IMG/VR virus record: IMGVR_UViG_3300008262_000026
Length of the DNA stretch: 64,000 nt
From: a virus
Taxonomy: Duplodnaviria; Heunggongvirae; Uroviricota; Caudoviricetes
Reading direction: 5' to 3' (one strand)
The position numbers were made by a program, and so were the translations under genes. Shown piece by piece: positions 33,024 to 35,320 of this stretch. The notes under the pieces were generated by a model. It was not told where the DNA came from, made no database searches, and was given only the letters and a program-made list of their open reading frames with translations. Numbering within the stretch: position 1 is the first letter of the stretch; every line of letters starts with the position of its first letter.

Positions 33024-33031
33024 TATAAATA
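33024..33031 (+). promoter_or_regulatory. T4-type late promoter box TATAAATA upstream of 33052
   Basis: Exact 8-mer 21 nt upstream of the ATG of the K/E-rich protein gene. Confidence 0.35.
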
Positions 33032-33051
33032 CCTAAAAAGTATTTGTAAAA

Positions 33052-33510
33052 ATGGACGCAAAAGACATTCGCAATATTCAAGAAGCATATTTGGGACTTT
33101 ATCAAGAACAGGAACTTGAAGAAGGTGCAGCTTGGTTAGATGCTGACAACGAATCAAGCAGACAAAGGAAACCAAAAACCCTAAAAACAAGAGAAGATAG
33201 GGAAAGAGATAGAGATAATAAGAACTTTAAAATATGGCAAAAGCAGAAGCAACAAAAGAAAAGTGTTGCGGAAAAAGTAGATATTTACGACATCATCCTT
33301 TCGCACCTTCTTGATGAGGGTTATGCTGAAACACCAGAAGAAGCAGAAAAAATTATGGTCAATATGAGTGAAGAGTGGAGAGATAGTATTGTTGAGGCAA
33401 AAAAGAAAGTAAAAATCCATACAGATAAACCAATTGAATATAAGATTGCTGATATTGGTCCAGGTAAGAAAGAATATAATGTAAAAACATCTAAAGGTTG
33501 GAGAGATTGA
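33052..33510 (+). CDS. highly charged K/E/R-rich protein
   Basis: Exact TATAAATA (33024..33031) just upstream. Confidence 0.5.
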   Translation: MDAKDIRNIQEAYLGLYQEQELEEGAAWLDADNESSRQRKPKTLKTREDRERDRDNKNFKIWQKQKQQKKSVAEKVDIYDIILSHLLDEGYAETPEEAEKIMVNMSEEWRDSIVEAKKKVKIHTDKPIEYKIADIGPGKKEYNVKTSKGWRD

Positions 33511-33511
33511 T

Positions 33512-34081
33512 ATGCTGACCTTTAGAGAGTTTCTTTTAGTTTGTGAAAAGAAATCTGTAGAACCACCGAATGCAGTACCAGGAACTTATTCGGAAAAAGA
33601 TGGAGTAACAAGATATACTTTGAAACCTTATGAAGGACCATCTGGACCCATAGGTTCTGCAAAGAAGGTGAATAAAATGTTAGATAAGCAAGGTGGAATT
33701 GGTGGAAAGTCTATGAAGAAGCACGTTAAAGCAATACAGAAAATAAAAGAAGATTTGGAACAAAGAAGGCAACAACTTCGTCAAAGACAAATAGACCAAA
33801 TGAAATCTCATAAAGACAAAGTTGCCTCACATCAAGCAGCACAACGAGAAAGACAATCTGCAACACAAGAACGCGAACAGTTAAAGAAAGAAATTAAGAG
33901 AGAGTTGCAATCAGAGCAGCATCCTACAATGAAACCCAATGAGTATAACAAGCAAATTGCAAGACAATCTGCACGTTGGAAAGGTATGCAAATCCGTCAG
34001 GCTCACGGAGAAATGGAGCACGAAGCAGGGGCAGAAGTTGCGGCAAAGAAAGCAAGACTAAAAGCAATTATGTCCCGTTGA
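33512..34081 (+). CDS. highly basic internal-protein-like protein with T4-type capsid-targeting N-terminus
   Basis: MLTFREFLLVCE resembles the T4 IPI-III/Alt CTS MKTYQEFIAE. Q/R/K-rich. Paralog of 34682..35320. Confidence 0.5.
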   Translation: MLTFREFLLVCEKKSVEPPNAVPGTYSEKDGVTRYTLKPYEGPSGPIGSAKKVNKMLDKQGGIGGKSMKKHVKAIQKIKEDLEQRRQQLRQRQIDQMKSHKDKVASHQAAQRERQSATQEREQLKKEIKRELQSEQHPTMKPNEYNKQIARQSARWKGMQIRQAHGEMEHEAGAEVAAKKARLKAIMSR

Positions 34082-34085
34082 TTGA

Positions 34086-34120
34086 AACTGGGCCCCTGAA
34101 AGTGCATCAGTAATGTAAGC
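34086..34120 (+). promoter_or_regulatory. motif B copy 4
   Basis: ATG-TAA variant. Confidence 0.6.
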
Positions 34121-34273
34121 AACTCAATCCAATGGACAAGTTTGACGACATTCAAATTGAAGAAAGTTCTTACTTTCAGTATCAGGAAGAAGAACCTCTC
34201 TTTGAAGAGGAAGAATATGATGACCAATCTTTCGCAGAATACCTGAACTCTACTCACGATTTTTGATTTAACT

Positions 34274-34462
34274 ATGGAACCCACGACTTACACTTTTACT
34301 GGTGATGCTGTGACCTATCTTGGTCTGCTGGGCATCTTCTCAACGTTTCTGATTGTTGTTACTGCTTTTCGTAGGTTCTTCAATTCTTCTTATAACATTC
34401 GTGTGACACCTAGCAAAGTGACCACCGAAACTCCCGCCGACAACGAAACTCCTGTATCCTGA
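34274..34462 (+). CDS. small membrane protein
   Basis: TM helix LGLLGIFSTFLIVVTAF. Confidence 0.4.
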   Translation: MEPTTYTFTGDAVTYLGLLGIFSTFLIVVTAFRRFFNSSYNIRVTPSKVTTETPADNETPVS

Positions 34463-34466
34463 ACCT

Positions 34467-34652
34467 ATGACTTCCAACATTCTTATTCATCTTAAAGAAC
34501 TGCAAAATGCCTGGAGGAAACAGGATTTCAAATTGACTCGCGAACAGCAAGAACAATACGATATTCTTCTTTATGCCCGCCGAGAACAAGTCAAGGAATA
34601 CTATGCAAACGGACAAGTCTATAAGGGCAGTGCTAAGAAGGATGCTGACTAA
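34467..34652 (+). CDS. hypothetical protein
   Basis: Plus-strand ORF. Confidence 0.4.
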   Translation: MTSNILIHLKELQNAWRKQDFKLTREQQEQYDILLYARREQVKEYYANGQVYKGSAKKDAD

Positions 34653-34681
34653 ATAACTTAAAGATAGTTCTCAGTATAAAG

Positions 34682-35320
34682 ATGAAAACCTTTCAGGAGT
34701 TTATGACCGTCTGCGAAGCAACTTACGACAAAGAAGTAATGTCTGGTTCGCAGATTAGAACTATGGGTTCTGGCGGAAGAATATCACCTGAAAGGAAGAA
34801 ATCTGCTCCCGAGAAAAGGAGAATGAAATCAGTCAGAAACCCTGAAACTGGTAAAGTTGAAAGAGTTGCTGCTGATTATAAAGACAGAAAGGATATTGGA
34901 ACTCAGAAACAAGCTTCAACTAGGCAGCAACAACCCGAAAAAGAGAGAGGAAGCAAAGAAGTTACTCAATCCTATGCTGAGAAAGTAAAGGCAGAGCGTA
35001 GAGCAGCAGCAAAGGCAAGACTAGCAGCAAAGGCATCTGGAAAAGAAGTAGAAATAAGCAAACCAAAAGCAAAAGAAGCAGAGAAAGCAGCAACTCAACT
35101 TCTTTCCAAGAAAACAACTCCAACTAAAACATCCTCTGGTGATAAAGAGGACCATATGATTAAGGGTTCTCTACTTCCAAAAGGTGAAAAGAGACCTTAT
35201 ACCAGAGACGAGAAGAAAAGAATTGTAAGAACTGGTAAGAGACTTCAAGCAGACTTACAGAAGAACAGAGAAAAACCATCAAGTCATTATCAACCATCAC
35301 TCACACCTGGCAAGAGTTGA
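34682..35320 (+). CDS. highly basic internal-protein-like protein with T4-type capsid-targeting N-terminus
   Basis: MKTFQEFMTVCE N-terminus. K/R/E/A-rich. Confidence 0.5.
   Translation: MKTFQEFMTVCEATYDKEVMSGSQIRTMGSGGRISPERKKSAPEKRRMKSVRNPETGKVERVAADYKDRKDIGTQKQASTRQQQPEKERGSKEVTQSYAEKVKAERRAAAKARLAAKASGKEVEISKPKAKEAEKAATQLLSKKTTPTKTSSGDKEDHMIKGSLLPKGEKRPYTRDEKKRIVRTGKRLQADLQKNREKPSSHYQPSLTPGKS

Follow-up and report, generated by a model that had tools for sequence, protein, structure and literature searches.

Two genes in a 64,000-nucleotide stretch of DNA from a Caudoviricetes virus (IMG/VR record IMGVR_UViG_3300008262_000026; the whole stretch is called the window here) encode strongly basic proteins, A and B, and raise the question whether both are packed into the phage head by a short N-terminal leader of the kind that targets the internal proteins (IPs) of coliphage T4. 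The phage is a T4-like cyanomyovirus that carries the T4-type baseplate genes gp25 (56278-56679) and gp6 (56680-58590), and it is most closely related to Kyanoviridae; by megablast, the DNA of the region had no near match in GenBank phages. The N-termini of A and B are well supported as T4-type capsid-targeting sequences (CTSs) that mark candidate internal proteins, and from sequence comparison we put the probability that both are phage head cargo using such a CTS at roughly 0.7. A sequence-only reading of this locus had proposed such N-termini on two paralogous proteins. The targeting part stood, on the portability of the leader, its essential residues, the selection on its peptide, the late promoters and the presence of other leader proteins in virions; the paralogy did not. 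The three plus-strand open reading frames (ORFs) and both N-termini were as that reading had given them.

33024..33031, plus strand: late-promoter-type box TATAAATA, 20 nucleotides (nt) before the ATG of 33052
33052..33510, plus strand: 33052 protein, 152 amino acids (aa), acidic, no CTS leader; PHROG 3708 and 22522 (function unassigned)
33512..33547, plus strand: leader of protein B (gene 33512-34081, 189 aa), MLTFREFLLVCE, 12 codons, predicted capsid-targeting propeptide with a predicted cut after Glu12
33548..34081, plus strand: body of protein B, residues 13-189, mature isoelectric point (pI) about 10.2
34649..34655, plus strand: late-promoter-type box CTAAATA, 26 nt before the ATG of A, overlapping the stop codon of the ORF before A
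34682..34717, plus strand: leader of protein A (gene 34682-35320, 212 aa), MKTFQEFMTVCE, 12 codons, predicted capsid-targeting propeptide with a predicted cut after Glu12 (VCE/A; a slash marks a cut or a module junction)
34718..35320, plus strand: body of protein A, residues 13-212, mature pI about 10.3, net charge about +26

The leader and the bodies behind it

Protein A starts with MKTFQEF and protein B with MLTFREF. Both keep Phe at positions 4 and 7, followed by a hydrophobic stretch that ends in V-C-E at residues 10-12, with Val at P3. In the T4 record, IPII and IPIII start with MKTYQEFIAE/A and IPI with MKTFKEFTSTTTPVSTITE/A, and the first seven residues of A matched each of IPI, IPII and IPIII at six of seven positions. 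The pattern shared by families A and B, M-[KLIR]-[TS]-[FY]-x-[EQ]-[FL]...E, was kept while the downstream sequence changed. Applied to a 16-kb T4 segment with 44 features, a pattern that describes the leaders of the window picked exactly ipI, ipII and ipIII, and applied to the 64-kb window it picked exactly A and B, at a chance rate of about 1e-4 per ORF as estimated from amino-acid frequencies; the proposed resemblance to the T4 CTS is real. The first 10 residues of T4 IPIII are enough for packaging (review of Black's work, PMC9026906). Mutagenesis of the T4 CTS assigned targeting mainly to residues 4 and 7 and processing to residues 8 and 10, and the T4 prohead protease gp21 cleaves after Glu at L/I-X-E (PMC9026906).

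Family A comprised 1619 clusters at 90% identity (198 at 50%), and M1, F4 and F7 were invariant in 46 aligned members; F4 and F7 are the counterparts of targeting residues 4 and 7 of the T4 CTS. Its leader occurred in a 10-residue form (MKTFSQFITE/VYDK...) and a 12-residue form (...LCE/A). The P1 residue before the A body was Glu in 144 of 149 leader-adjacent cases and in 23 of 23 internal fusion cases, and P3 was L in 60, I in 50, C in 12, M in 8 and V in 5. In family B (156 clusters at 90% identity) the leader was the best-conserved block, with a majority frequency of 0.91, and natural variants that had lost the N-module, the helix or both always kept it. Homologues of A among isolates were limited to S-SM2 (SSM2_065), P-TIM68 (gp045), SynMITS9220M01, S-B05, RN05-S and RB11-B, all annotated as hypothetical. 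Family A was found in 10 of 50,697 phage records and family B in none, and tblastn of B against phage isolates gave no match.

Behind the leader the two proteins parted. BLASTP aligned A with B along residues 1-12 only (8/12 identical) and the bodies were unrelated, which is why the paralogy fails. Both were strongly basic, as had been described: the pI was 10.15 for A and 10.05 for B, the net charge +25 and +18, and the Lys plus Arg content 25% and 22%. The description of the bodies as low-complexity was partly right, but both also hold conserved, family-specific segments. In family A this is the N-terminal half, AxYDxxVMxxSQIRxxGxGGR...RKKxxPExRRMK..., and the AlphaFold2 (AF2) model of A (mean predicted local distance difference test, pLDDT, 68; predicted template modelling score 0.25) had scattered helices and disorder with no globular fold. 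Family B consists of the leader, an N-module (13-80), a long helix (81-134) and a highly conserved C-module (135-189; EQHPTMxPNEYNKQVARQSARWKGMQIRQAHGEMEHEAGAE..KAIMSR); its AF2 model (pLDDT 80) was confidently helical, with helices at 66-135 and 144-188. Searches of A and B against Pfam and PHROGs returned nothing but sub-threshold noise, profile searches against PDB sequences found no relative, Foldseek of the B model against the PDB found no match, and neither the Pfam nor the PDB profile searches revealed a recognisable enzymatic domain. The charge together with the lack of a fold suggests that the bodies are DNA-associated. Internal [LI]xE sites numbered 0 in A and 1 in B; a depletion of such sites was set aside as evidence, since these counts are not significantly below the estimated expectations of about 1.4 and 1.9.

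Compared with the T4 IPs, A and B share the MKT[F/Y]xEF leader, with an aromatic residue at position 4, Phe at 7, a terminal Glu and a hydrophobic residue three positions before the predicted cut. They also share small basic bodies that are unrelated to one another behind a common leader, genes clustered in variable loci, late-type promoter boxes and, probably, a phage with a gp21 protease and a gp22 core. Unlike those of T4, their leaders have 12 residues (...TVCE) rather than 10 (IPII and IPIII) or 19 (IPI), the proteins are more basic (pI about 10.1 against 8.9-9.5), and some of their relatives are multi-module fusions with internal Glu junctions. Packaging, processing and injection have been demonstrated for the T4 proteins and are predicted for A and B. 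IPI acts in anti-restriction, and no function is known for IPII and IPIII (PMC9026906); to ascribe an anti-restriction role to A and B is to extrapolate from IPI.

The same leader on other proteins and in virions

A viral contig collection was scanned for DNA encoding MKTFQEF; the counts refer to the matches listed and are lower bounds. At least 123 ORFs were found, nearly all with the peptide at a genuine ORF start, at a median of 6 codons past the upstream in-frame stop. After removal of the first 14 residues, the leader-bearing bodies fell into at least 29 unrelated BLAST clusters, one of which was family A. Among the matches listed, all 117 unique proteins had Glu at positions 9-14 (70 of them at position 10) and P3 was mostly I, L, M or V, which fits the L/I-X-E motif of gp21. 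At least 66 of 120 contigs shared other genes with cyanomyoviruses, and examples from the remainder encoded a myovirus tail sheath or a DNA polymerase of the T4 type. Two or more leader genes occurred in 34 of 121 loci among the matches listed, with as many as six in a row, and A and B were repeatedly found as neighbours.

A portable N-terminus of this kind could also act at the nucleotide level, for example as a recombination cassette or an enhancer of translation initiation, with no functional peptide. AAA/ACN codons behind the start codon help initiation, T-even IP loci probably reshuffle by way of conserved flanks, and repeated regulatory cassettes do exist in the genome of the window. The codons of the leader speak otherwise: among the listed matches all synonymous codons were in use at each degenerate site, about as often as in the background, which places selection on the peptide, and specific amino acids (F4, F7, the hydrophobic residue 8 and Glu) were kept even in the divergent form MKDFDSFLEE. 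We consider the nucleotide-level explanation very improbable.

The bodies that carry the leader included enzymes. The largest listed leader cluster (27 members) held the S-adenosylmethionine (SAM) lyase domain PF23780 at 66 bits against a cutoff of 28, with examples on contigs L083:5882, L011, L013 and L023 and in the isolates S-H34, S-N03, S-CREM2 (gp6) and P-TIM68 (gp123). SAM lyase is a classic anti-restriction enzyme. The S-CREM2 homologue, gp6, was found in virions with 19 peptides, and the occurrence of this enzyme behind the leader together with that detection points to injection of a SAM-degrading enzyme by marine T4-like phages. Other leader bodies comprised a weak ADP-ribosyltransferase (ART/PARP)-like group below the cutoff, DUF5661, and proteins with HExxH or DGHHR motifs. 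In this respect the marine leader proteins (the SAM lyase, the weak ART/PARP-like group, the S-CREM2 kinase and a cytidylyltransferase) are like T4 Alt, a packaged ADP-ribosyltransferase, and other head-delivered enzymes; A and B differ in having no recognisable enzymatic domain.

As further observations on these loci, the run of up to six tandem leader genes lies at L070:1446-4516 on the minus strand, with other tandem loci on L058, L065, L072 and L105, and several of the tandem genes have a repeated ERYYxPDEKLPSGxTP domain in common. A 462-aa protein of L058 holds a leader-like segment twice, the internal copy reading FEEFIELAERYYEPDEKLPSG.

Published virion proteomes provided a comparison with packaged proteins. 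The proteome of CsCl-purified S-CREM2 virions comprises 52 proteins (PMC10665884, Table 3). The S-CREM2 genome (OR473000) was scanned in six frames, at every possible start, with the pattern M[KRQ].[FYL]..F[LIMVF].E, which returned exactly five ORFs:

gp6: SAM hydrolase, MKDFDSFLEE
gp13: MKDLHSFLTE
gp14: kinase, (M)KRFDAFLTE
gp136: MQTFSMFFSE
gp154: cytidylyltransferase, MKNFSSFLTE

Each of the five is in the virion proteome; with 52 of 219 genes represented there, the probability of this is about 6e-4. The pattern was chosen after gp6, gp13 and gp14 had been seen, and gp136 and gp154 are the only hits out of sample. Two near-matches, gp15 (MNFSEFNES) and gp12 (LRFASFMAE/A at residues 17-25), were virion proteins as well, and the neighbours without a leader (gp11, gp16 and gp18) were not detected in virions. 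The annotated start of gp12 may lie too far upstream; it was kept as a near-match and not counted as a full leader hit because the candidate start codon is CTG.

S-SM1 (GU071094), whose virion proteome has 41 proteins (Sullivan 2010 Table S8), was scanned with patterns fixed beforehand. Both annotated hits were virion proteins, namely the T4-GC190 cytidylyltransferase (MKKFSAFLNE/A) and T4-GC1455 (MLSFKELQEKK). One extra hit was an unannotated 51-aa antisense ORF within gp17. The small abundant S-SM1 virion proteins GC334, 347, 403, 425, 426, 642 and 1428 had no leader, so the tag looks sufficient and is not universal. Non-structural virion proteins of S-CREM2 (gp6, gp12-gp15, gp136 and gp154) and S-SM1 (SSM1_190 and SSM1_192), which include SAM hydrolase, kinase, cytidylyltransferase and a Cas9-like nuclease, start with leaders of the MKxFxxF[LF]xE type. 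The S-CREM2 and S-SM1 source papers make no mention of a CTS or of these leaders. The head machinery that such a leader would need, gp21 and gp22, was present in S-SM1 and S-CREM2, and the gp21 protease and gp22 scaffold occur in all 16 cyanomyoviruses of Sullivan 2010 (Table S8).

The virion data also bear on the idea that A and B are basic nucleic-acid binders of the host cytoplasm, either histone-like or factors of host takeover, that are never packaged, with the N-terminus serving as a short helix for oligomerisation, partner binding or stability. Their genes lie among small accessory ORFs of a kind that is usually expressed early, their bodies are very basic and partly disordered, and the virion support for A and B comes from other leader proteins and none of it is direct. 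Cytoplasmic binding would leave unexplained why the same leader stands on at least 29 unrelated bodies, why Glu regularly follows it, why it is the experimentally defined T4 CTS, why late boxes precede leader genes, and why leader proteins are the non-structural proteins of S-CREM2 and S-SM1 virions. We judge it improbable.

Besides the choice of the S-CREM2 pattern given above, several points weigh against A and B being head cargo. The proteome evidence concerns other leader proteins, since the published proteomes cover no carrier of A or B, and homologues of A, B or 33052 were absent from both S-SM1 and S-CREM2. Contaminating proteins may persist in virions purified on CsCl. The gp21 and gp22 genes of the window phage fall outside the 64-kb window. 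The Val at P3 of both window leaders is not the canonical L or I that most homologues have, and a simple alternative for the Glu that precedes the A body is that the conserved part of this domain begins with it. The bodies of A and B had no significant similarity to those of T4 IPI, IPII and IPIII, so a function cannot be transferred from the T4 proteins. Read-through early transcription of A and B is also possible, because both belong to a group of small accessory genes with copies of a repeated motif at its borders.

Late-promoter boxes, the 33052 gene and module exchange

Head cargo of the T4 type should be made late. The late promoter of cyanomyoviruses has been given as NATAAATA (PMC2984593) and the late-promoter consensus of the T4-like phage Aeh1 as CTAAATA (PMC1524935). 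The window held 10 copies of [AC]TAAATA on the plus strand and 2 on the minus strand, most of them 19-27 nt before an ORF start. One ATAAATA, at 56249, precedes gp25 by 22 nt; this true late gene stands at the start of the structural module, and its box served as an internal check of the late-promoter geometry. In family A loci with full upstream sequence, (C/A)TAAATA stood 22-26 nt before the ATG in about 19 of 22, four of which read ATAAATA. Across the leader genes of the listed contigs, ATAAATA occurred at -60..-5 in 30%, against 8% of other genes (odds ratio 4.8, Fisher p = 1.7e-12).

The box TATAAATA before 33052 was not notable by its count, with 3 in the window against 4.1 expected, and that argument was rejected; it matters for its conserved position in homologous loci. 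Of 18 loci with a homologue of 33052, 17 had an ATAAATA box 20-25 nt before the gene, and where 33052 was absent the box sat directly upstream of the B homologue. In the window the start of B overlaps the stop of 33052 (TGAtATG), and the TATAAATA box probably drives 33052 together with a translationally coupled B. As predicted from these boxes, late transcription would make A and B available during head assembly.

A third gene for a charged protein had been placed behind this exact late box. The box is there, at 33024-33031, and the gene behind it encodes a protein that is acidic, not basic (pI 5.9, net charge -2), and has no leader. The 33052 protein has four [LI]xE sites; two of them are of the form (L/I)-x-E/A, IQE/A at residues 9-11, within the conserved N-terminal motif, and IVE/A at residues 113-115. 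In other proteins a CTS leader and an A body flank its C-terminal module (residues 116-152, KKKVKIHTDKPIEYKIADIGPGKKEYNVKTSKGWRD), and its central module DIILSHLLDEGYAETPEEAEKIMVNMSEEW also occurs in S-CRM01 g291/g292 and S-SCSM2R gp205. Within the same protein, the small module (D)IILSHLLDEGYAETPEEAEKIMVNMSEEW (window 33262-33400; 33052 residues about 71-116) recurs in many cyanomyovirus late proteins in varied position and order. In S-CRM01 g292 (locus L132) the N-terminal AWLDxDNESxRQ segment of 33052 is placed at the C-terminus; S-SCSM2R gp205 is locus L133.

An exhaustive family A profile search revealed longer proteins with 50-160 residues ahead of the A body. P0248 and P0256 are 33052-type proteins fused to an A body, with junctions ...ILDE/VYDADVM and ...NIIE/AYDEDVI; they hold the 33052-type ...RNLxxAY... 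N-terminal motif and the DLYDxILSxLLDEGYAETPE...MSEDW module. P0244 consists of a leader, then the 33052 C-terminal module (which in the window follows SIVE/A, residue 115), then NNE/AYD and the A body. P0245, P0251 and P0257 run from a leader through a B-type coiled coil to the A body (...ELSSE/AYDPEV). Natural fusions such as P0248 and P0256, in which the A body directly follows a 33052-type protein, link 33052 to A, and the Glu at the A-body junctions is consistent with polyprotein-like products that a Glu-specific protease would process. By its box and its modules, 33052 is an acidic, predicted late protein of a modular family that belongs to the same module pool as A and B.

These sites and fusions also raise the possibility that A and B are directed to the core by the leader and act there as assembly or scaffold accessories like gp67, gp68 and gp22, in head building, head sizing or DNA condensing, after which they would be degraded or persist as fragments, with no role in the next host. 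The predicted 70-residue helix of B and its second long helix are scaffold-like, the Glu-junction fusions resemble core proteins that are cleaved several times, and 33052 has its four [LI]xE sites. T4 IPIII mutants have head-assembly defects, and IPs co-purify with gp22 (PMC9026906). The mature bodies of A and B, with none and one internal [LI]xE site, should survive such a protease, however; families A and B are sporadic among cyanomyoviruses, as essential assembly factors would not be; and the other leader cargo includes enzymes with plausible host targets (SAM lyase and kinase). We regard a purely assembly-related role as unlikely, though less so than cytoplasmic binding. The same comparison applies to the 33052 family and its fusions, which look similar to gp67, gp68 and gp22, proteins that are directed to the core and cleaved at several L/I-X-E sites; those T4 proteins are conserved and essential for assembly, whereas 33052, A and B are sporadic accessory genes.

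If A and B are head cargo, A and B would be transcribed late from NTAAATA-type promoters, B being co-transcribed with and translationally coupled to 33052. The 12-residue leader (M-K/L-T-F-x-E-F-h-x-h-C-E) would bind the gp22 scaffolding core during prohead assembly, so that the proteins become enclosed in the shell, and a gp21-type prohead protease, which cuts after Glu, would take off the leader after Glu12. The freed mature proteins, very basic at a pI of about 10.2, would stay with the packaged DNA and enter the host alongside it. Where parts of the 33052 family are fused to an A body with Glu at each junction, the product may be a kind of polyprotein that this protease also divides. That A and B themselves are packaged, cleaved and injected is what we infer from these comparisons. 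After entry they might, with low confidence, protect the incoming genome by binding to it or neutralise its charge.

On a wider view, the leader may be an ancient, sequence-readable address tag across the Kyanoviridae and other marine T4-like phages, one that defines a large and fast-shuffling set of packaged, injected proteins; we give this extension an even chance. Its cargo would include the SAM lyase, kinases, the cytidylyltransferase, ART-like and nuclease-like proteins and the Glu-junction fusions, with A, B and 33052 as abundant DNA-associated members. A partial parallel comes from the giant phages phiKZ, 201phi2-1 and SPN3US, in which propeptides of head cargo are removed C-terminal to Glu by a gp21-like protease (PMC9026906). 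Their inner-body proteins are similar in having a very short cleavage motif and many cargo families, some of them DNA-associated (PMC9026906), and differ in an S/A-X-E motif, long and varied propeptides, the lack of a conserved MKTFxEF tag and a separate phage lineage.

The kind of system is well known from T4, and its presence in cyanomyoviruses with a broad cargo appears not to have been described: in the searchable literature, no paper connected a CTS with cyanophages and none had the string MKTFQEF. The T4-like cyanophages, which deliver their DNA into Prochlorococcus and Synechococcus, rank among the ocean's most abundant viruses. Virion-proteome papers list enzymes (SAM hydrolase, kinases and cytidylyltransferases) without a route of entry, and if this account is true the leader is the missing mechanism. 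Injected proteins would then be predictable from sequence for thousands of uncultured phages, and their effector repertoire could be catalogued from metagenomes. Specific hypervariable loci would be likely front-line counter-defence arsenals, the head-targeting code would be conserved from coliphage T4 to cyanophages despite very deep divergence, and protein-delivery tools based on the T4 CTS could transfer to marine phage systems.

Surroundings of the locus

The leader genes A and B have DNA-modification and defence-type genes as neighbours, and the same neighbourhood was found in S-SM2 and P-TIM68. The features between and around A and B in the window were as follows.

28093-29559: DUF2828/DUF7788 protein
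30865-31593 and 38184-39083: two N6/N4 DNA methylases
34088..34118, plus strand: intergenic motif copy CTGGGCCCnTGAAAGTGCATCAGTAaTGTAAG, 6 nt past the stop of B, opening the next gene block (34132...)
34132-34266, 34274-34462 (phrog_14199) and 34467-34652 (phrog_3262), plus strand: three small ORFs between B and A
35324..35354, plus strand: second flanking copy of the 22-copy intergenic motif, 3 nt past the stop of A
36255-37502: ResIII/DEAD helicase

The upstream sequences of family A loci showed the phrog_3262 ORF at 34467-34652 to be a conserved upstream neighbour of family A genes. After the motif copy at 35324, two plus-strand ORFs overlap in different frames, 35371-35526 (51 aa) and 35456-35716 (86 aa); neither had a PHROG match and the gene call is ambiguous.

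The intergenic motif CTGGGCCCnTGAAAGTGCATCAGTAGTATGA occurs in 22 copies, all on the plus strand and within 21575-53453 (for example at 34088, 35324, 36228, 41397 and 47457), against none expected by chance. Each copy begins 0-8 nt past the preceding stop codon, and no consistent hairpin was found in the motif. In 10 copies the ATG of the next gene lies inside the motif at offset +27; in others this offset reads ATGTAA or GTGTAA, a start followed by a stop, and the gene begins at an ATG 44-69 nt from where the motif starts. A plain sigma-70 early promoter was dropped as an explanation because the spacing is wrong and the start codon is inside the motif in those 10 copies. The motif was present in just 2 of 120 related contigs, and it may be a lineage-specific promoter or translation-operator cassette.

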